A stretch of DNA of 64,000 bases from an uncultured delta proteobacterium (GTDB lineage Bacteria > Desulfobacterota > Zymogenia > Zymogenales > Zymogenaceae), in NCBI GenBank assembly GCA_963735595.1, contig CAVTLK010000004.1, positions 320,001 through 384,000 of the forward strand, in the 5' to 3' direction. Position 1 is the stretch's first letter, and each line of letters opens with the position of its first letter. The position numbers and the translations under genes are program-made. Shown one piece after another: positions 9,682 to 22,267 of the stretch. The notes under the pieces are model-generated. The model saw only the letters and a program-made list of their open reading frames with translations. It ran no database searches and was not told where the DNA came from.

Positions 9682-9711
9682 AGAGTTTCACGCAAATTAC
9701 CGAGTGGCGTC

Positions 9712-11176
9712 ATGCCGAAAAAGACCGAAAAACCGGCCCCCCAATCACCTCTCTCCAAACTCCCCGCGGTGGACAAGCTTCTGTCTCATCCGCACGTCAG
9801 GGAGCTTTCGGAGCGGTTTCCCGCGATGGTGGTCAAACAGGCCGTTCGGGAAGCGGTATCCGACGCCCGCAGGCAGCTCAAGGAACAGCCCGCGTCCGAC
9901 GTGATTGCCGAGCCGGCCCTCCTTTCACTGATCGAGGAGTGGCTGCTGATGTCGATCACGCCGCGGCTCGTGCCGGTTATCAACGCAACCGGGATCATCC
10001 TCCATACCAACCTCGGACGGGCGCCGCTGGCTAACGAGGCGCTCGATCATGTCGCGGCTATCGCCTCGGGCTATTCAAATCTCGAATTTGACCTCGACGA
10101 AGGACGGCGGGGGTCGCGCCGTGACCACCTCTCGTGCGCTGATAACCGAAATCACCGGCGCCCCGGCGTCCGTGGTCGTCAACAACAATGCCGCGGCGGT
10201 CCTTTTGGCGCTCAATACGCTGGCCGATGGTCGGGAGGTAATCGTCTCCCGGGGCGAGCTTGTGGAGATCGGCGGCGCGTTCAGGATTCCCGACGTGATG
10301 GAAAAGAGCGGCGCCCGCCTGCGCGAGGTGGGGGCGACCAACCGGACGAGGCTTTCCGACTACGAACGCGCCATCGGCTCCCAGACGGGGCTGCTGTTGA
10401 AGGTTCATACATCGAACTACCGGATCGTCGGGTTTACCGAGGAGGTCACCGCAGCCGAGCTTGTCGCCCTCGGAAAGCGGTACGACGTGCCGGTCATGGA
10501 GGACCTCGGCAGCGGCTCGATTATCGACCTGACCCCCTGGGGGCTCCCCCACGAGCCGACCGTCCCGGAGGTGGTCTCGTCGGGCGTTGATATTATCACG
10601 TTCTCCGGGGATAAGCTGCTGGGCGGGGGGCAGGCCGGCTTCGTCATCGGGGCGCTCGATTACGTCGAGCGGGTCGCGAAAAACCCCCTGTACCGGGCCA
10701 TGCGCGTCGATAAGATGACGCTGGCCGCTGTCGAATCGACCCTCATGCTGTACCGCGACCCGAACGAGGCCCGGCAAAAGATCCCCGTCGTCAGGATGAT
10801 CACGATGTCCTACGACGAGACGAAGCGGCGTGCGCAGGGCATCGTTCGGCAGCTCAACCGGGAGCCCCACCCGAACCACGACGTCACCACCGTGGACGAC
10901 GTCTCCGGAGTCGGCGGCGGGGCCTTCCCAACTTCCGAACTGCCCGGCCGGGTGGTTACGATCATCCCGCTGGCCGAGAGCCCCGTCAGGCTCGAGGAGC
11001 GCCTGCGCCGGCAACCGGTCCCTATCGTGGCCCGGATTGCCCATGAACGACTGATCCTGGACCCCCGTACAATCACCGACCGCCAGATGCCGGACCTGAT
11101 CCGGGGGACGGCGGCCGCGCTGCGGGGGGAGACGGGATCCCGGCATAGCAACAGACCCGAAAAAGACAGTGTGTGA
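9712..11176 (+). CDS. selA: L-seryl-tRNA(Sec) selenium transferase (selenocysteine synthase); frameshift near 10135
   Basis: LP.VD.LL, VINATGIILHTNLGRAPL, VNNNAAA, SRGELVEIGGAFRIPDVM, KVHTSNY, EDLGSG and the PLP-lysine motif FSGDKLLGG. Confidence 0.95.
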
Positions 11177-11187
11177 GGAGGAGTGCG

Positions 11188-11442
11188 ATGTCCGAAGAGG
11201 TAATGGTTGGAGAGGTCATCAAGTTTTTTGCCAAGCCGTCCGTTGCGGCGATAAAGGTAACCGGCCCCATCAAGGTCGGCGATGAGCTCCATTTCAAGGG
11301 CGCCACGACCGATTTTACCGGGGTGGTGGCCTCGATGCAGATCGATAACGCCGAGGTGACGGACGTCCGGTCGGGGGCGCTGGTAGGGATAAAGATCGCC
11401 GACAAGGTCCGACCGGGGGATCACGTTTTTAAAAAGCCATAG
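11188..11442 (+). CDS. Small stand-alone translation-factor-like beta-barrel protein
   Basis: 84 aa; VGEVIKFFAKPSVAAI...VGDELHFKG.TTDF...V.SMQI...VGIK...VRPGD.V pattern; strong RBS GAGGAGG. Confidence 0.75.
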   Translation: MSEEVMVGEVIKFFAKPSVAAIKVTGPIKVGDELHFKGATTDFTGVVASMQIDNAEVTDVRSGALVGIKIADKVRPGDHVFKKP

Positions 11443-11443
11443 C

Positions 11444-12338
11444 GTGAAGACTATGCTCATCGAAATCAAGGGCCTGCACCACGTGTTTTTCCCGGGGACG
11501 CCCCTTCAAAAGGCCGCGCTGTCGGGGATTGACCTTGCAATCGACCGGGGCGAGTTCATCGCCCTTATCGGCCGGACCGGCTCGGGAAAGACGACGCTGG
11601 CCCTTTCCCTCAACGGGCTGTTGATCCCGACCAAGGGCAGCGTCCGCGTCGGCGACATCGAGGTCAAACCCTCGACAAAGAAGACCGCGCGGCTCCGGGA
11701 TCGGGTGGGGCTGGTCTTCCAGTACCCGGAGCACCAGCTCTTTGAGGAGACGGTCATGGCCGAGATATCGTTCGGCCTCGTGAACCGGGGGGGGCTTTCC
11801 GAAGACGAAATCCGTACCCGGGTCTACGGGGCCGCGCGCCTGGTAAACCTTGACCTCGACCGATTGGCCGACCGCTCGCCGTTTACCCTGTCGGGGGGCG
11901 AGCAGCGCAAGGTCGCCATAGCTTCGATTATCTCCATGGACCCGGATATCCTGGTTTTCGACGAGCCGACCCAGGGGCTGGACTCCCGTTCACGCACCGA
12001 GACGCTGCAGAAATATCAAGGAACTCAACGGCCGGGGAAAGACCGTTATCATCATCTCGCACGACATGGAAGAGATCATCCGGGTGGCCGATCGGATCAT
12101 TATCCTTGACCGGGGTAAAATTGTCCTGGATCGCTCGCCCAAGGCGCTCTTTGACGACCCGAAGGCCCTGAATACGGCGCGGCCGTTTTTGCCCGATGTC
12201 ACCCAGTTATTAATCGGTTTGAAGGAGAAGGGATGGGATATCAAGACAAATACCTATCGTTCGGACCGGGCGCTGAGCGAGATATTGTCCGCCCTCGGCC
12301 CCGACGCGCCGGAAGGGCGCGGGAGGATACGCGCATGA
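11444..12338 (+). CDS. ECF transporter ATPase (EcfA2/CbiO-like); frameshift near 12010
   Basis: GTPLQK.AL, Walker A GRTGSGKT, VFQYPEHQLFEETV, SPFTLSGGEQR, DEPT and SHDMEE. Confidence 0.85.
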
Positions 12339-12933
12339 GCGGCATCCGGCGTCTCTCGTACGTCCTGCTGATATCGGCTGCCGCGATGCTCTGGGGGTGC
12401 CATGCGGCGCCGCCCGAGGGAGAGGGAACGCCCGCGAAGGGCGGCGTTTTCGCCGACGTGATCGCGGCCGTCGAAACGGTCAATACATCCATACCCGATC
12501 CCGGAGAGCGTGACTCCGACGTGCCGCGCGGCGAATGGAAGCTCATCCTGGACGCGCGGCAGCGATTCACGGTGCCCCGCATCGTGTCCGACTACTCCGC
12601 GGAGACCGATTACTACGAACCCGAGGAGGCGGATACGGCGGGCAGTACGGACATGACACGGGGGGACGCACTAGACGTTATCCTTGACGCCGAGTGGGAC
12701 GAGTATACGACGCCTCTCGAACTCGGTTCTTTCCGAGACGGCCGACCCGCAGCTGGTAAAGGTACGCCGAGGAATCGCTCGCGGATTTCTACCGGGACCT
12801 GCCGATCCTGATGGACGCGGTACCGGACACGATGAGGGAGCGGGTGCTCCATATCGTCGTGTTGAGGTATTTCAATACGATCCTGCGGGCGGGGGTGGAC
12901 CCCCGTCTCTATACGCTCATGCAACCCCGCTAA
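12335..12933 (+). CDS. Hypothetical lipoprotein; about two frameshifts near 12730-12765
   Basis: ATGA overlap with the preceding stop; lipobox LWG-C; joined frames end ...RLYTLMQPR-TAA at 12933. Confidence 0.55.
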
Positions 12934-12962
12934 AAAAGGCCGGGGACAATAGGGAGCACGTC

Positions 12963-14726
12963 ATGCGACAAAGAATCCGGATTTCGGCAATCGCCCTGGG
13001 CGTAGTGGTCGCGGTCGCGATGAGCATTACGCTCGTAATGAGCCTCGGGGACGCCCGGGCGGAAGCCCCCGACGAGCTTCTCGGGCTCGTCCCCGAAAAC
13101 GTCGAGTCCCTTATCTATCTGCGCGACCTGAGACAGGGGCTCTCGCCGTTTCTCGGGAGCGACTATTATGACGAGGTGAGCGACCTTTCCGTCTTCGACG
13201 GTCCGTTCAAGAGCGATCTCTCAGCGCCGCTCCTCACAAAACTCGGCGATTTTGAAAAATCGACGGGCATCCGTCCGACACCGCGCCGGGTGTTGTGGAT
13301 GGTCGGCAAACGGGCCATCTTTTTTACCACGAGACTGCCTTCCGGCACGGCCTCGGCGGGGATAATCGAGACGGGATTTCTCAAGCGTCTGGTCATCAGC
13401 GCCGCCTCGATCTTTTCGGGCGGCGTCGCCAAGGAGGACTGGGGGACCTATTCGGTCTGGGTGGTCACGGCCGGCGGCAAGCATATATATTACAAATCGA
13501 CAAAACAATACACGGTCTTTTCCGATTCGGCAGAGCTGTTCAAGAGCCAGTGGGAGATAGTATCGGGAAGCGGTTCCGCCGCGATCACGAATAACCCCCG
13601 TTTCACGGGTCTCCTCTCACGTTTGCCCGGCCAGTACCACATCCTCTACTACTCGACGAGCGTCATGAACCCTGATCCCGAAAAGAAGGGGCTCCGGGCG
13701 CGGATGGTGCGGCTGTTGAAAGGTACGGACGCGGTAGCGGCCACAATATCCTTTACCGAGACGGGGCTTGACGCCTCGGTCCTGGCCCCGTACGGTACGG
13801 CGGAGGACGCTGCCGACCTTATGGCCCTCGGGATGCTTACCGATACGCCGTTGATCGACCTCGGGCAGATCCCGGGGGAAACGGCGGGCCTGATCGTCTT
13901 TCGGGCCTTCGACCCGGGTATCGTCTACACGCACTTTTCAAAGAGCTGGTTCGGGGACGTTACCGAGCGGATCGCCTATATCTCCGTGCTCAAGACGTGG
14001 AAAGAGAAGGGGGGATTCGATCTCGAGGGAGGCATCATCAACAACCTCGGCAGGGGTGCGACGGCGGCGCTCGTCGGCCTCGGCTGGGAGGCCCAAAAGC
14101 CGCACCTGAAGGTGATAGCCTCCGTGGGCGTGAAGCCGGGCGGCGAGGCCGCGCTCGCGGAAAACCTCTCCAAGTTCTTCGCCTATTCGTTTTTCGATGC
14201 CGGCCCCCAGGTCATTACCCTGGATAATGCCACGCTGTCGTACATGGGCGGTTTCCGTGAAAAGAGCATCAATTGGAACGGCTCCGAATATGACGTTTCC
14301 GTAAAGGCAAACCCGGGATTCGGATTCTGGGGAGGGAGGCTTTTTCTGTTCTGGGATCTCTCGGCGGTCCAGCGGCTCGTCGACAACGCCGCGCTCTCGT
14401 CGATGAAGGAGGCGGGAAACCTCTTTGACCGGGACTTCCTCATTAAATCGGCGGCGTTTATCGAGGCCCAAAAGAAGATCCCCGCCGACAATTACGATCT
14501 CTACGGCTATGTTGACGGGAACAACGCGGTCTCGCTCCTGGAGGATTACCTGGTCAATCTCTCGGCCAACTATACCTATTTTCTCTATCAGGATTCGGAA
14601 AAGCGGCTGCTGCCGCTTCTGGAACTGACGCGGCACGCGTTTGTCTCATGTTCCGGGGGCATTAACTTCTCGGGTGACGCCATAGAAGGCACGGTTACGC
14701 TCACGGCAAAAGACCTCGATGAATAG
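12963..14726 (+). CDS. Exported or membrane-anchored protein, probably the YfaA (DUF2138)-like member of the macroglobulin operon
   Basis: N-terminal hydrophobic signal; about 587 aa; lies directly before the DUF1175 and macroglobulin genes. Family assignment is from context only. Confidence 0.55.
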   Translation: MRQRIRISAIALGVVVAVAMSITLVMSLGDARAEAPDELLGLVPENVESLIYLRDLRQGLSPFLGSDYYDEVSDLSVFDGPFKSDLSAPLLTKLGDFEKSTGIRPTPRRVLWMVGKRAIFFTTRLPSGTASAGIIETGFLKRLVISAASIFSGGVAKEDWGTYSVWVVTAGGKHIYYKSTKQYTVFSDSAELFKSQWEIVSGSGSAAITNNPRFTGLLSRLPGQYHILYYSTSVMNPDPEKKGLRARMVRLLKGTDAVAATISFTETGLDASVLAPYGTAEDAADLMALGMLTDTPLIDLGQIPGETAGLIVFRAFDPGIVYTHFSKSWFGDVTERIAYISVLKTWKEKGGFDLEGGIINNLGRGATAALVGLGWEAQKPHLKVIASVGVKPGGEAALAENLSKFFAYSFFDAGPQVITLDNATLSYMGGFREKSINWNGSEYDVSVKANPGFGFWGGRLFLFWDLSAVQRLVDNAALSSMKEAGNLFDRDFLIKSAAFIEAQKKIPADNYDLYGYVDGNNAVSLLEDYLVNLSANYTYFLYQDSEKRLLPLLELTRHAFVSCSGGINFSGDAIEGTVTLTAKDLDE

Positions 14727-15776
14727 GTGGGCCGGGCCGCTCCTGCTGATCGTATCGGCGGTAACGGCCATCTCGTGCGCCCGGCCGACCGATATAACCG
14801 TCACTCCTTCAAAGGAATAGGCTTTCGGCGAACAAGGAAGACACCGTGGAGATCGCCATTAACGCGGTGACGGAGGCCGGAACCCCCGTCCGCAGGTACG
14901 ACGGGCCGGTAACGGTGACCCTTTCCGGCCCCGCGGTGACCATGACGGAGGGCGGGCCGATCCTGTTCCACAATGGGGCGGCGGCGGCGCGTCTTATTTC
15001 GACGTTCGAGACCGGCACCCTTTACGTTACGGCCGAGGTGCCGGGGCTTGACCCCGGACGGGCGACGATCGACGTCGTCGGTGACTACCGGGATCGGGAC
15101 GAGGACGGCTTCCCGGACGTGACCGAGCTCTTCGGGGATACCGACCGGCTCAACTTCAGGCGCTGGTTTTGCGCCGTGGCAGAATCCCAGGTGTTCGAGG
15201 AAAACCGGCGCTGGGATGAGCTCAACCGGGACTGTGCGGGCCTGGTGCGGTTTGCCTATATCGAGGCCCTCAAGCCGCACGACGACGCGTTTTTCGCGTC
15301 GTACGCCACGCTGGTTTCGCCGGCCAGCCCGGACGTGAAGAGGTACGCGTATCCCGACGTGCCGCTCCTGGGAACGGCGGTCTTTCGCACGTCGCCGGGC
15401 GCGTTTACGCCCGACGATATCGGCCTCAACTTTTCTGCGGCGGGCACGGCCGAGGCGCTGCTCCAGTATAACGTCGTCTTTCTGGGACGCACCGAGCGTG
15501 ACGTGCTTCCGGGAGATCTCTTGTTCTTTTTCAACCCGGATAACCCGCGGATGCCGTCCCATACGATGATCTACCTGGGCGAGTGGGGAAGAGAGGCCGA
15601 TGACGACGAGAACGAGGACTGGCTGGTCTACCACACCGGCCCGAGGACGAACGACCGGGGCCAGGTGCGAAAGGTGAGGCTGGCCACGCTCAAGGTAGCA
15701 CCCGGACGAGCGGTGGCGGCCGGTGACGGAAAACGACCATTTTCTCGGATACTATCGGCTCAAGATACTGGATTGA
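14719..15776 (+). CDS. DUF1175 (YfaT-like) lipoprotein with N-terminal Ig-like segment; frameshifts near 14815 and 15697
   Basis: Lipobox AIS-C; FRRWF...AE.Q, RDCAGLVRFAY.EAL, PGDLLFF, SHTMIYLG, YHTG; C-terminal HPD.RWRP...N.HFLG.YRL.IL after frame repair. Confidence 0.8.
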
Positions 15777-15960
15777 AGCCCGTGTCCCCTTTCGAGAGAG
15801 GACGTCGAGAGGGACGTATCACAAAGCGCCGGGGGCGCCGACAGGCGGGGCCTGCCGGTGGTCCTGAGGTACACGGGCAGACTTCGGCTCATCCACGCGG
15901 CCCCTGCGGCCGGTAGCAGTGGATAGATATATAACGGCATACCTATCGACGAGGGAAATC

Positions 15961-18900
15961 ATGAAAAAGTCCCTTATCCTTACCGTCGTGCTTTCTTTGG
16001 CTCTTCCGGCCGTGTCTCGGCGGCTCCTTCGAGCTTTCCACCGACAAGATCTTCGCCCCCGGCGAGCCGGTCTCGGTCACGGTGTCGGCCATGGATATCC
16101 CGACGCTGGATATCCGGCTCTACCGGGTCGACGACCCGAAGTCCTACTTCCTGGGGCTCTGAGGACGTCCACTCGCCGGAGGTCGAGTTACCAGGCGCGG
16201 ACGTATCCTCCCCCTCGGAGATGGTGGGCGCGGTCAAGCGCAAGGCCGGGCGGCTGTTGAGGGACGATTACCGGGGCAAGCTCACCGATAACATCCGCAA
16301 CGACATGGTGTCGGCCCTGGGCCTGCCCCACGCCTCGGAGCCGGACAGCCCCGCCCCCGGAAAGCTACGAGCTCTTCCCGATCCTGAAGCGCTTCAACTT
16401 CCTGAACCGCTGGCAGGAAAACCTCGTTATTTCACGTTCCGGCCAGTGGCAGTATCACACGATTAACCTGAATATCCCCGAGATCGGCTGCTATCTTGTC
16501 GAGGCGGTCTACCAGGACGAGGTGGCCTATACGATGGTGGTGGTTACCCCGATGTCGTTCGTCGTCAAGAATTCGTCCTCCGACAGCCTTATCTACGTGG
16601 CCGACCGCGTGAGCGGAAAGCCGATGCGGGGCGTCAAGGTCTCGGTCTACGACCAGAAGAAAGACCTCCTCTTTAAGGGCACGACCGACTCGGAAGGGAC
16701 CTACTACTCGAAGGTGAAGACGGGCGATTCCAACACGATCTACGTCTTCGCCGAGGACGGCGAGAGCTTCACGCTGGCAGATCCCTATGCCTACTGGTGG
16801 GACGATCGGCCGACGATAAGGTCTATACCTACACCGACCGGCCCGTCTATCGTCCCGGAGACACGGTCTTTTTCCGCTCCATCCTGAGGGAATCGACCGA
16901 CTCGGGGCTCAAGGTCCCCGACCGGGGCGACGACTACCTGGTTATCATCAACGACGCCAAGGGCAACGAGGTCTTCAGGGACGAGCTTCCGATCACCGAA
17001 TACGGGAGCCTGGCCGGCACATTACGTCCTGGGCGGCGAGCCCTCTCTCGGGGAGTACCAGATCGTCGTGGGCCTAAACGGCCAGAATTACTACAGCCGA
17101 TTTAAAGTCGAGGAATACAAGAAGCCGGAGTACGAGGTCAAGGTCAACACGGATAAGGGCGTCTATATCCGGGGCGAGACGATCCGTGCCGATATCGACG
17201 CGGGATACTATTTCGGCAGCCCCGTATCGGAGGCGAAGGTCGACTATACGATTTACCGGTCTGTCTACGAGCGCCCCTGGTGGTGGGGGTACGACTGGGG
17301 CTGGTATTTCATGGACTCCGACTACTACTATGCCCATGATAAGGTCATGGTGGACAGCGGCACGACGGCCCTGGATAACCAGGGTAAGCTCATGCTGACG
17401 GTTGATACATCTCAATATCTCGAATCGGCCGATAAAGATTATATGTTTACCATCGAGGCCTCCGTCACCGATCTCTCCCGCCGAGTGGTCACGACAAGCT
17501 CGGTGGTCAAGGTCGTCCGCTCCTCTTATTCGCTGTAACGGTTCGCCCGGACCGGTGGATCTACGCCCCCGGCGACACGGCGCGCGTGACCGTTACCGTC
17601 TCCGACTTCGACAACAACGGGATCGCCGGCGTCCCGGTACCGTGATCGTACGGTGACCGACTGGAGGACAACGTCGCCCCCGCATCGATGACGCTTACCG
17701 GTATCACCAACGTCGGCGGGGACGCCGTTATTGAATATCCCGTCGAAGACGTGGGCGATCTCACCTTTGTCGCCACGGTCTTCGATAAGGCGGGCAACAG
17801 CACCACCGCCAGGGACAGCTCCTACTCGATTACCGAGGGATATGCCTACGGGGGGGATTCGGGGGGCGGAGTTTCCATCGTCCCCGACAAGCACACCTAT
17901 GCCGTCGGCGATACGGCGCATGTCCTGATCGCAGCGCCGGTTACCGATACGTATCTCCTGGTTACAACCGAGGGGGAGGCGATCTACGACAGCAGGGTCG
18001 TAAAGATCACCGGCGGTTCGACGATGATCGATCTCCCCATCAAGGAGCGGTACGCGCCGAACATCTACATCTCGGTCTCGGCGATCTTTAACGATGAGCT
18101 CTACACCGAGAATAAGAACATCATCATCCCGCCGATCGAGAAATTCGTCACCATCGAGGTTACCTCCAACAAGGCGGTATACGAGCCCCAGGAAAAGGGG
18201 ACCTTCACTATCAAAACGACAGACGACAAGGGCAAACCCGTGACCGCGGAGGTCTCGTTGGGCATCGTCGACGACGCGATCTACGCCATCTCGCCGGAGC
18301 TGGTCGACGAGATACAGAAGTATTTCTATAGCCTCCGCTACCACTCGGTGGATACGTCTTCGTCGCTCTACTTCCGTTTCTACGGGTATTCCCACCGTAA
18401 GGGGCTTTTGGCGGGGCTCCCCGAAAAGGAGACGAAGCTCGCCGACTTCAAGGGGGACAGCCTCGTGGAGCCGGTGATCCGAAAGGATTTCAAGGATACG
18501 ATGTACTGGTCGCCCACCATCACCACCGACAGGGACGGCACGGCCACGATCAGCGTGAGTTTCCCGGATAACCTGACGCGCTGGCGGGCGACGGTGCGGG
18601 GGATTACCGGCGGCGATATGATGGGACAGGTGACCTACACCGTCATCAGCAGGAAGGACCTTCTGGTCAGGATAGAGTCGCCTCGGTTCTTCCGGCAGGG
18701 GGACGACCTGGTGATCTCCACGATCGCCCATAACTATCTCTCCACCGACAAGAACGTCCGATTCACCTTCGAGGCCAAGGGGCTCACGCTCATATCCGGC
18801 AAACCGGTCGACGCAATCGTCCCGAAAAACGGCGAAAAACGGATCGACTGGCACGTCAGGGCCGATCTCGTTGGGGAGGCGACCCTCACGGCCAAGGCGA

Positions 18901-20607
18901 TGACCAACGAGGTCTCCGACGGTATGGAGCTGACTATACCCGTGCTGCCGATGGGCGTCAGGGAGACGAGGAGCGAGGTGGGCGAGATCATCAAGGAATC
19001 GGGCACGATTACCGTAAAGGTGGATAAGCCGGCCTCCACGATAAAGAACGCCGCCGAGCTTGTCCTGACGACAAGCCCCACGCTCGCCAATACGATGCTT
19101 GCCGCCATACCATTTCTGGTCGGCTACCCATACGGCTGAAACGAGCAGGTAATGGCAAGGTTCTTGCCATCAATCATGGTTGGTTCGGTACTGAAGAAGC
19201 TTGATCTGAGCGAAAAGAGCATCGAGAAGGACCTCCCCGACTACATCAACAGCGGGCTCATGGTTCTGTATAAACGGCAGCACGACGACAACGGCTGGGG
19301 GTGGTATGAGTTCGACGAGACCGACCCCTATATGACGGCCTACGTCCTGTACGGCCTCCTGGAGGCAAAACGGATGCTGCCGGAGGCGGGTATCCCCATC
19401 ACGGTCGACGAGGGGGTAATCAAGCGGGGGACGGCCTCTCTCATCACCCAGCTTCCCTCGATAGAGGAGGACTCGGTCAGGGTCTATGCCCTGTACGTCC
19501 TCTCCCACACCGACAAGCTCAAGCTGACCTGGCTTGACGAGATGTTTGAGAAACGGGCCAAGCTCACCTCGATCTCCAAGGCGATGCTGCTATTGGCCTA
19601 CGAGAACAAGGGTGTCGAGGGAAAGGCGAAGGTCCTTTACGACGAGCTGATGAAGGAAAAGGTCGAATCCAACGGAATGGTCCACTGGGGATACACCGGC
19701 GAGCAATTCTACTGGTGGGATTGGGAGGCCGATCCGCTCGAGACGACGGCCTATATGCTCCGGGTCATGGCCAAGCGCGACATAGACAACCCCTTGATCC
19801 CCAAGACGATCCGCTGGCTCATCGTCAACCGAACGGGAAGCTACTGGCGGTCAACCAAGGTCACCGGGAAGATCATCTACGCGCTGACCGATTACCTCAC
19901 CCGGACGGGAGAGACCTCGCCGAATTACACCCTGACCGTTACCCTCAACGGTAAGGATATTAAGAAGAGTAAGATCACCAAGGATACGATGATCTCTGAA
20001 GCGGGATCGATCACGATCCGGGAAGCCGACCTGAAGACCGGGACGAACACGATCGAGTTCAAGAAGGACGGGCCGGGCAGCCTCTATTATTCGTCAGGCT
20101 TTACCTACTACACCGCGGCCGACCGCATCGATCCGAAGAACAACGGGTTCGAGGTGAAACGGAAATATTACCTCCTCAAGCGGGTGGCGAAGAAGGGCGA
20201 GCTGATTTACGCCAAGGAACCCCTGACCGGGCCCGTCACGAGCGGGGACGAGATCCTCGTGGAGCTGACCGTCACCAACGACAAGGACGTGAAATACTTC
20301 CTGCTGGAAGACTACTTCCCGGCCGGGTGCGAGGCCGTTACGGACGATGCGAACTACGTTATCTCCGGCGACGATCTCTACACCGGCGACGCCTACTGGT
20401 GGTACGCGGGCAAGGAATACCGCGACGAGCGGATTGCCCTCTCAATGGAATACTTCGGTAAAGGTACGAAGGTCTTCAAGTATATCCTGAGGGCGCAGAA
20501 TCCCGGCACCTACGGCGTGATGCCCGCCGAGGCATACCTGATGTACTTCCCCGACCGGTCTGGGACGCACGGAGAGCGCGACCATCGTCATTACCGATAC
20601 GAAGTGA
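15961..20607 (+). CDS. Bacterial alpha-2-macroglobulin (about 1550 aa) with an in-frame TGA (putative Sec) at the thioester position; several indels in the 5' third and one near 20565
   Basis: YTDRPVYRPGDTV, FKVEEYKKPEYEV, VSLGIVDDAIYA, RKDFKDTMYW, FPDNLTRWRAT, PRFFRQGD, YPYG-TGA-NEQ, QHDDNGWGWY, YW.STK.T, LEDYFPAGCE and PAEAYLMYFP. Confidence 0.92.
19137..19139 (+). other. In-frame TGA, candidate selenocysteine codon
   Basis: ORFs 17688..19139 and 19152..21230 share a frame (offset 1464 nt); the intervening codons AAC GAG CAG GTA give G-U-N-E-Q-V-M. Confidence 0.8.
19152..19170 (+). promoter_or_regulatory. Bacterial SECIS-like hairpin
   Basis: Perfect 8-bp stem ATGGCAAG/CTTGCCAT with a GTT loop; the stem starts 12 nt and the loop 20 nt after the TGA. 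Confidence 0.75.
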
Positions 20608-21629
20608 GCGGCGGGGGATGGGTGGGATTTCTTCATCGGCGGCTTGGCCCCTGGGGGGCGGCCGCCCTCTTTATCGCCGTGGTCTCCTGCTCCCCGTCTT
20701 CGGAGGCGACGCTTGACAAAGACTCCCGGCTCAGGGAGGCCGCAATCGACGCCATGGACGGCCGACCGGGGGCCGTGGTGGTCATGGACGTGGGGACGGG
20801 CAGGATCAGGGCGATGACGGGGGAAGAAACGGCGGCCGGGTGGGCTTTCCCCCCGGGGTCCCTCGTTAAGCTGGTGACCGCCTGGAAGGCGATAGAGGAG
20901 GGAACTCTTTCGGCCCGGAAAAAGGTTCGTCTGCAAGGGGAGCGCCCGCTTTTCGGGGATCGAATACCCGTGCTGGTATCCACCGGGCCACGGCGATCTC
21001 GATCTCGTCCACGGGATTGCCTATTCCTGCAACCTCTATTTCCTTTCCCTGGGCGACACGGTACCGGCCGATTCAACCTACCGCGGCCTCGTGGAGCTCG
21101 GTTTCGGACACAAGACCGGGGTCAACCTCCCCGGCGAGGTGGCGGGGAGGCGTTTCGCCGCCCGACGGACTCGGCCGCGACTATCTCATCGGAAATACCG
21201 ACTCCGTTACGGCCACGCCCGTGCAGGTGATCACATATCTTTCCGCACTGGTAAACGGCGGGAGCGTGTGGGTCCCGGCGGTAACCGGCTCGGCCGGCGA
21301 GATCGCGTCATTCAGCCCGCGGCTCGCGCTACAGGATAGATGCGTCGCGGGCGGCCCCCGTCATCGTCAAGGGAATGCGCGATGCGGCCCGCTACGGCAC
21401 CGCGACTAACGGCGGCCTAGAAGGACACGAGGTCATGGGCAAGACCGGCACGGGGACGCTCCTGGGGGTACCGTGGGAGACGCACGGCTGGTTTCTCGGA
21501 TTTGCCCCCGCCGAGGCGCCCGAGATTGCCGTCGTCGTCTTCCTCTACCGGGGAATGGGCGGGGAGGACGCGGCGCCGGTGGCCCGCGAGGTGTTCCGGG
21601 CATATTTCGAGGAAGGTGCGAACCAGTGA
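20604..21629 (+). CDS. Stand-alone penicillin-binding transpeptidase-domain protein, probable lipoprotein; frameshifted
   Basis: GTGA overlap with the macroglobulin stop; lipobox-like VVS-C; SxxK (GSLVK), SxN (YSCN) and KTG (GKTGT) motifs; HGWF.GFAP...PEIAVVV. Confidence 0.8.
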
Positions 21630-22267
21630 GGAGGACGTGGATCGCCTCGCTTATCGTGATCCTTGCGGCCGCGCAGGCGCCCGCGCTCGATTTTTCACTA
21701 GATCGAGACCAGGCACTTTACGATCAGGTTCGGTGAAACGTCCGCGTCACGAATACGTAACGCGGCCGCGCTCTTCGAGGCGGCCTACGGGACGATTGAA
21801 CAGGTGCTCGGGACAATCGGTACGCGGCCGATCGACGTGGTAATCTTTGCCGAGACGGGCGATTTCACCGCCGAGACGGGGCTTGCCGTATGGTCGGCCT
21901 CGGCAACGATCGACGGGGCGATCTATATGCAGCCGGTCCCGGTGCTCACGGCCCGCGGCGTGCTGGACACGACGATCCGCCACGAGGTATGCCTCGTTTT
22001 TCTGCTCAGACGCTACGGGGCCGACATGCCGGCGTGGCTCGCGGAGGGCCTGGCGGTCTATCACGCGGGCGAGATCGAGGTCCTCCGGCGGGGACTTTTC
22101 GGGGACGCCACCCCTGATCTCGGCTCCGGACGACATCGACGCAACTCCTGTTTGACCGGACCGACCGGGAAAGAAATCGCTGGGGATACGTGATGGCCTA
22201 CGAGGCGGTGCGGTCGATGATAGAGGGAGAGGCCGCGGCGCATGCGCGCAAGGGAAGTACGCGATAA
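21626..22267 (+). CDS. Exported peptidase-MA-like protein with a degenerate zinc motif; frameshifted
   Basis: GTGA overlap; signal peptide; TIRHEVCL (second His of HExxH missing) and P.WLAEGLA.Y. Confidence 0.6.

Follow-up and report, generated by a model that had tools for sequence, protein, structure and literature searches.

An alpha-2-macroglobulin gene of the family Ca. Zymogenaceae carries an in-frame UGA codon at the position of the thioester cysteine, and the comparison of sequences makes it very likely that this UGA is read as selenocysteine (Sec). The product would then be a full-length, exported alpha-2-macroglobulin of the thioester type, with Sec in place of the thioester Cys. 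It is probable that the Sec is not only incorporated but also joined to Gln in a selenoester that arms a protease trap.

The macroglobulin gene and its UGA codon

The window is a stretch of 64,000 nucleotides in which the gene has the following features.

15961..20607, + strand: alpha-2-macroglobulin gene, placed by tblastn and blastn against the intact orthologue L026, with ATG at 15961 and TGA at 20605-20607
15961..16025, + strand: N-terminus resembling a signal peptide, with no lipobox Cys on inspection of intact orthologues by eye
19122..19148, + strand: thioester motif G-Y-P-Y-G-U-N-E-Q with both pocket tyrosines of the thioester domain (TED), from the sequence; it aligns with YGCGEQ of CD109
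19137-19139, + strand: in-frame UGA, putative Sec at the thioester Cys position; the codon is kept in the family and homologues have Cys

Positions 19122-19154 of the window read GGC TAC CCA TAC GGC TGA AAC GAG CAG GTA ATG, which translates as GYPYG*NEQVM. The initial annotation had placed a TGA in frame at the thioester Cys codon of a macroglobulin gene, and rereading of the window bears this out; the open reading frames on either side (17688-19139 and 19152-21230) share one frame. The intact Cys orthologue was aligned by tblastn as a single HSP over 17529-20564 with 85% identity, in agreement with the claim that no stop other than the TGA interrupts the frame between about 17688 and 20560. 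The codon, which had been estimated to lie at about residue 1060, corresponds to residue 1058 in the intact orthologue. Past the UGA the open frame continues for about 490 codons and is under purifying selection. A search for RNA runs that contain this DNA gave none. Intact orthologues are about 1550 residues long, and the Cys form L026 has 1548.

The identification of the gene as an alpha-2-macroglobulin also stands. When TGA was translated as U, the chain matched the Pfam families A2M_BRD, A2M, TED_complement and bMG10, it contains YPYG-U-x-E-Q, and Foldseek matched its model to A2M/TEP structures. The domains of L026 are bMG3, MG2, MG3, bMG5, A2M_BRD, A2M, TED and bMG10. The C-x-E-Q of thioester-type macroglobulins takes the form U-N-E-Q here through the TGA codon, with E and Q retained. 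The first Cys of the orthologues is residue 176-180, and one orthologue has Cys 1462 besides U. A partner Cys close to U in sequence, of the CxxU type, was not found in the orthologues.

Database homologues have Cys at this site. In a first set of 78 sequences, Cys is present in all 67 that are not truncated and the other 11 end at YPYG; in a second set of 120, Cys is present in 112, six end at YPYG and two are without the motif. No full-length entry bearing U was found among the homologue search matches. The UGA thus explains a class of annotation error, the homologues that are cut at YPYG in databases.

The possibility was considered that the TGA is a sequencing error or a nonsense mutation in a pseudogene. 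The macroglobulin gene of this assembly does contain many single-base indels at 16019-17681 and another near 20549-20567 when compared with L026. However, most of its neighbours are frameshifted as well.

9703..11170, + strand: selA (Sec synthase), frameshifted in the assembly; TIGR00474 over cut-off, PF03841
12948-14726: conserved protein of about 620 residues (621 aa) upstream of the DUF1175 gene, with no Pfam or NCBIfam match
14641..15773, + strand: DUF1175 (YfaT-like) gene directly upstream of the macroglobulin; PF06672
20628..21629, + strand: penicillin-binding protein with a transpeptidase domain only, directly downstream; PF00905 with E=4.8e-47 on L026, where it has 343 aa
21693..22252, + strand: peptidase-MA-like exported protein, a lead only; ESM Atlas feature match of 0.94 to a Peptidase_MA_2 cluster

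Seven of the nine genes in 9703-22252 are frameshifted relative to an intact relative (selA, an ECF ATPase, a 232-aa protein, DUF1175, A2M, the penicillin-binding protein and the peptidase-MA-like protein), and several of the inserted bases are absent from contigs of related strains. For these two reasons the indels across the region are probably consensus errors of the assembly. Moreover, L027 and L029, two orthologues with the TGA, have unbroken genes apart from this codon, and the TGA has persisted at dS>1 while dN/dS past it stays low, which contradicts an error or a pseudogene for the family. An artefact or a dead gene is therefore hardly credible as the origin of this codon. Other findings of broken genes within 9703-22252 of the window are suspect.

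The selA gene shares the strand of the macroglobulin and precedes its start by about 4.8 kb, both here and in L026 and L027. It is also near the macroglobulin in genome G006, and none was seen in the approximately 7 kb upstream of the L029 gene. The 12948-14726 protein may be a YfaA-like operon member, a guess from its position. The protein at 21693-22252 had no Pfam match; this peptidase-MA-like neighbour of a protease trap has HEVCL where HExxH is expected.

Selenocysteine machinery and a SECIS-like hairpin

The presence of selB, selC and selD in the genome had been proposed as a check on the Sec reading, and all three were found, together with selA. The selA, selB and selD genes gave profile matches over the cut-offs, with one selB over cut-off. 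The tRNA-Sec is canonical and single-copy with a G discriminator, and it is the only confident UCA tRNA; a second, weak UCA call appeared only at a lowered ARAGORN threshold. Two selD genes (L005 and L006, contig C3 of genome G000) lie about 18 kb apart, one of them with an in-frame TGA (U-A-A-K), and two fdh genes have an in-frame TGA. The other selD match is split and covers the model only from position 32 on. Among the family relatives, 8 of 9 have a selB over cut-off; it is missing only in G001, a genome that is 89% complete. Neither MvhD/FlpD nor HdrA over cut-off was found in the genome.

The UGA could also be read as Cys, Trp or Gly through an alternative code or a special UCA tRNA, in which case the thioester would be ordinary or absent. 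The family residue is Cys, recoding of the selC*-type to Cys occurs in deltaproteobacteria, and a SECIS-dependent Cys route would leave the same signature in the DNA. Nevertheless, TGA ends 1271 of the 3113 long ORFs of this genome and 22 of the 38 long Sec-macroglobulin frames, and prfB (RF2) is present over cut-off, so UGA has kept its use as a stop and the loss of RF2 that would mark an alternative code is not seen. Furthermore, the one confident UCA tRNA is the canonical tRNA-Sec and only one selB passes the cut-off. Recoding to an amino acid other than Sec is highly improbable.

Downstream of the codon, an element was found that is absent from the initial annotation.

19152..19170, + strand: bacterial SECIS-like hairpin 12 nt past the UGA, with an 8-bp stem and a GUU loop at +21..+23

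An alternative pairing of this hairpin has 7 bp and a GGUUC loop. The bSECIS consensus is a G-loop hairpin 16-37 nt downstream of the UGA (PMC13188914, section 5), and the element agrees with the model given there, having an 8-bp stem, a GUU loop 20 nt past the UGA and an energy of -9.1 kcal/mol. Folding of the 54-nt region gave -17.4 kcal/mol (z=-3.35), and 0 of 200 shuffles were as good. The same 54-nt fold had z=-1.07 in the TGA orthologue L008, which is not significant, and z=+2.15 in the Cys orthologue L009. The genome's own fdhA SECIS also starts after a 12-nt spacer and is nearly identical in stem and loop. A motif that combines the macroglobulin and fdhA hairpins gave three matches in the genome, those two and one unrelated. 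The hairpin alone is not diagnostic, since 8 of the 1271 long ORFs of this genome that end in TGA are followed by an equally stable one in the same position.

The degenerate codons at +1..+10 are invariant in 9 of 9 cases across 12 Sec genes of the family (two of them near-identical, the kin not being independent). Immediately upstream the figure is 2 of 9 and elsewhere it is 44 of 368, and the highest value among 256 other windows was 0.5. In both Cys orthologues the hairpin codons have drifted, Ala(+6) has become Ser and the stem is broken. At +6 (codon 19155-19157) all 73 Cys rows of the alignment have Ser, as do 17 of 47 Sec rows; 28 of 47 Sec rows have Ala or Gly. Ser is also found in 98 of the 112 sequences of the second homologue set and in both Cys revertants. 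Because the G of the +16/+28 G-C pair comes from the Ala and Gly codons of the Sec forms, the change at +6 looks, from these codons, as if it were driven by the SECIS, with Ser coming back once the SECIS is unneeded.

If the UGA were a real or selenium-conditional stop, a 1057-aa chain would be made and translation would restart at the ATG at 19152, giving a two-piece protein without a thioester, and the hairpin would serve re-initiation or selenium sensing. The ATG does open the hairpin, 13 nt after the UGA, RF2 is present, and in databases the two halves are called as distinct genes (YPYG ends 11 of 78 homologues, and 10 of 10 downstream halves were found). However, the split entries are automatic gene calls, and the Met is a family residue that occurs in 58 of 73 Cys rows. 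Moreover, the N-E-Q-V between the UGA and the ATG is conserved to the codon level, a C-terminal chain without a signal peptide would be unable to follow the exported half, and reversions in the genomes seen are to Cys and never to TAA, TAG or TGG. Termination at this codon is very unlikely, and insertion of Sec is the preferred reading.

Sec and Cys forms within and beyond the family

An orthologue was found in 9 of 9 other genomes of Ca. Zymogenaceae (Desulfobacterota), whose class is described as anaerobic fermenters in a preprint (10.1101/2021.03.22.436540). The codon in the ten family genomes is TGA in eight, TGT in one and TGC in one. When 401 genomes of the phylum were searched with a pattern allowing TGA or TGG, only the eight family genomes matched, all with TGA and none with TGG; the 391 phylum genomes outside the family gave no match to this exact pattern, which misses divergent motifs. 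The initial annotation would have been undermined if no other genome had TGA here and the region past it showed relaxed selection. Instead, TGA is present in 8 of 10 family genomes and at 44 metagenome loci, and dN/dS between the window gene and the Sec orthologues is 0.08-0.28 downstream of the codon (10 of 11 pairs, one being saturated), similar to the 0.11-0.30 before it (from the 9 pairs whose sequence sufficed), at dS of 0.57-2.8.

The Cys alleles appear to have re-arisen twice in the family, and the Sec/Cys switch would be evolutionarily reversible. That the Cys form is tied to loss of the Sec system was considered and rejected, as both Cys genomes retain selA and a TGA-bearing fdh. Because these are kept, the reversal to Cys is gene-specific, and Sec is dispensable at the site.

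Metagenomes were scanned with the pattern YPYG-TGA-xEQ. Of the 96 stretches obtained, 45 were macroglobulins by blastp and 44 were kept; L033 was dropped as spurious, with a match of 16 aa and closed frames. Eight of the 44 group with Ca. Zymogenaceae and the 36 others are 26-41% identical to the references. Among the source labels of the other TGA lineages are Ca. Fervidibacter (Armatimonadota) and a Planctomycetota bacterium. Among 44 distinct TGA contexts, compiled from metagenome and genome sequences, a bSECIS-type core beat synonymous resampling (p<=0.05) in 26, compared with 0 of 7 Cys contexts. The remaining 18 failed the resampling test; several lineages have a weak hairpin or none, and L114 is without any. 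Within lineages that share the same register, stem pairs have changed on both sides, some of the changes being tied to amino-acid changes.

A quick IQ-TREE analysis of 47 Sec and 73 Cys rows, a sample biased in that the Sec rows came from the pattern and the Cys rows from a homologue search, gave 16 label changes, of which at least seven are forced by well-supported branches. Three sequences with short downstream frames (L022, L075 and L100) were excluded. In this tree both Cys forms of the family fall within groups of Sec forms. The Sec rows L049 and L056, whose hairpin is imperfect, nest closely among Cys rows, some of which carry the name KSB1, and it is possible that they represent a recent Cys-to-Sec gain. 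It is fairly likely that these genes belong to a widespread, uncatalogued family of exported selenoproteins with a Sec-Gln selenoester warhead that has been gained and lost many times across several phyla.

Sec macroglobulins of the Ca. Fervidibacter type are L042, L046, L058, L068 and L069, and public proteomes exist for a cultured hyperthermophile of this genus. Cultured Fervidibacter sacchari expresses selA, selB and selD and two 'MG2 domain-containing' proteins, according to PMC11535203. Neither of these proteins (WP_259096277.1 and WP_259096003.1) is among the UGA-split cluster members listed (15 of 58 and 15 of 47).

The thioester pocket, the proposed selenoester and related systems

The C-terminal 799 residues were modelled with AlphaFold, U being folded as C, with a pLDDT of 87.9 and a pTM of 0.71. 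Three features of the fold bear on the chemistry of the site.

18333..18455, + strand: disordered segment at the bait-region position (model residues 62-102, pLDDT <50)
19083..19907, + strand: helical thioester (TED) domain (model helices 312-586; PF07678)
20541..20546, + strand: Met-Tyr pair of the C-terminal MG10/CTMG domain (M798/Y799, nearly invariant in alignment A1)

Foldseek of the model returned CD109, A2ML1, SaA2M and ECAM at E<=5e-38. MG domains, a bait-like segment, the TED and a C-terminal MG10 were found by Pfam, the model and Foldseek, and the disordered segment is the putative bait region in the model. The thioester of SaA2M and ECAM is shielded by two TED tyrosines and the CTMG Met-Tyr, as described in PMC4498604. 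By sequence, the pocket residues are all retained here, namely E, Q, the two TED tyrosines (YPYG) and the CTMG Met-Tyr (LMY).

From the intact YPYG-U-x-E-Q, the CTMG Met-Tyr, the conserved fold and the lack of a Cys near U, we infer a selenoester. The selenol would attack the Gln three residues on with release of ammonia, and the resulting internal gamma-glutamyl selenoester would be stored in the hydrophobic TED/MG10 pocket. By analogy with ECAM and SaA2M, cutting of the bait segment by a protease would expose the ester, which would then acylate a Lys of the protease and free the selenol. Selenium would speed ester formation through its lower pKa, and the ester would react faster with amines but also hydrolyse faster. 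Sec has a lower pKa than Cys (PMC13188914, section 8), and aryl selenoesters have a higher rate of aminolysis in model compounds in organic solvent (PMC7232547). The lower pKa and faster aminolysis make the selenoester plausible, and they also predict that hydrolysis would be faster.

Alternatively, Sec may be inserted without a stable selenoester being formed. The selenol could act as a nucleophile, serve at a redox or metal site, or be a precursor that resists oxidation and is acylated only briefly, with non-covalent trapping or some other role for the protein. Side-chain selenoesters are more reactive than thioesters, with hydrolysis competing (PMC7232547), and the frequent replacement of Ser at +6, universal in the Cys rows and present in 17 of 47 Sec rows, suggests that the pocket may differ. 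However, the SECIS explains the change at +6 more simply, the E, the Q, the TED tyrosines and the CTMG Met-Tyr are retained, and a partner Cys of the CxxU type is absent. A Sec that forms no stable ester is unlikely on this evidence, and the Sec-Gln selenoester remains the preferred reading.

According to the initial annotation, macroglobulins are not known among the described selenoproteins, and the sources consulted agree. The 119 families in Table 1 of PMC13188914 (2026) include no macroglobulin, TED or thioester entry, and the available text of that source has 0 mentions of macroglobulin or thioester; the families of Haft and Tolstoy 2025 are represented here by their rows in the same table. 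No macroglobulin was found in the available BSepDB text and its one supplement (about 4 million characters, possibly incomplete). The deep-Sep supplements gave no real macroglobulin match, only one chance match inside a sequence, and the SelCysML text gave no macroglobulin match. A literature search for macroglobulin or thioester proteins with selenocysteine, UGA or SECIS, with subscription journals mostly outside its coverage, returned unrelated papers only. NCBIfam of June 2026 has no selenoprotein model for this protein.

If the proposed chemistry is correct, Sec would serve not only at redox and metal sites but also in a stored acyl-donor bond. Selenium would occupy the reactive centre of the macroglobulin/complement fold, and the protein would provide a genetically encoded selenoester for covalent capture. 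Additionally, Sec and Cys orthologues that are 85% identical and all reside in Sec-using genomes make the Sec-versus-Cys question testable in non-redox chemistry.

The closest known systems are E. coli ECAM/YfhM (PDB 5a42, 4ziq, 4rtd) and Salmonella SaA2M (4u48), which share the MG/bait/CUB/TED/MG10 architecture, the YPYG-[C/U]-x-E-Q motif and the pocket residues, with phmmer E values of 3e-14 to 4e-11 and Foldseek E values of about 1e-38. As with ECAM, the gene adjoins a penicillin-binding-protein gene. In contrast to ECAM and SaA2M, the protein has UGA/Sec and a SECIS where Cys stands, and unlike the ECAM type it has, by eye, no lipobox Cys near the N-terminus. The neighbour is a 343-aa penicillin-binding protein with a transpeptidase domain only, whereas that of ECAM is the bifunctional Pbp1C, and here a DUF1175 gene lies upstream. 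A DUF1175 gene is typical of yfaT-yfaS-type operons, whose macroglobulin is thioester-less.

In the animal thioester proteins (CD109, A2M, A2ML1, insect TEP1 and complement C3/C4), YGCxEQ aligns with YG-U-NEQ, and CD109 is the best PDB match (sequence E=4e-26, fold 6e-40). They differ in that all solved members have Cys, structural-alignment identity is 15-20%, and the protein described here has bacterial N-terminal MG domains. The gene resembles those of bacterial FdhA/FdhF and SelD in having an in-frame UGA at a Cys-homologous reactive site, a bSECIS within the coding region and interchange of Sec and Cys among orthologues. Unlike the catalogued selenoproteins, which have Sec mostly at redox or metal sites, this Sec would carry an acyl group in an intrachain ester within a large exported trap.
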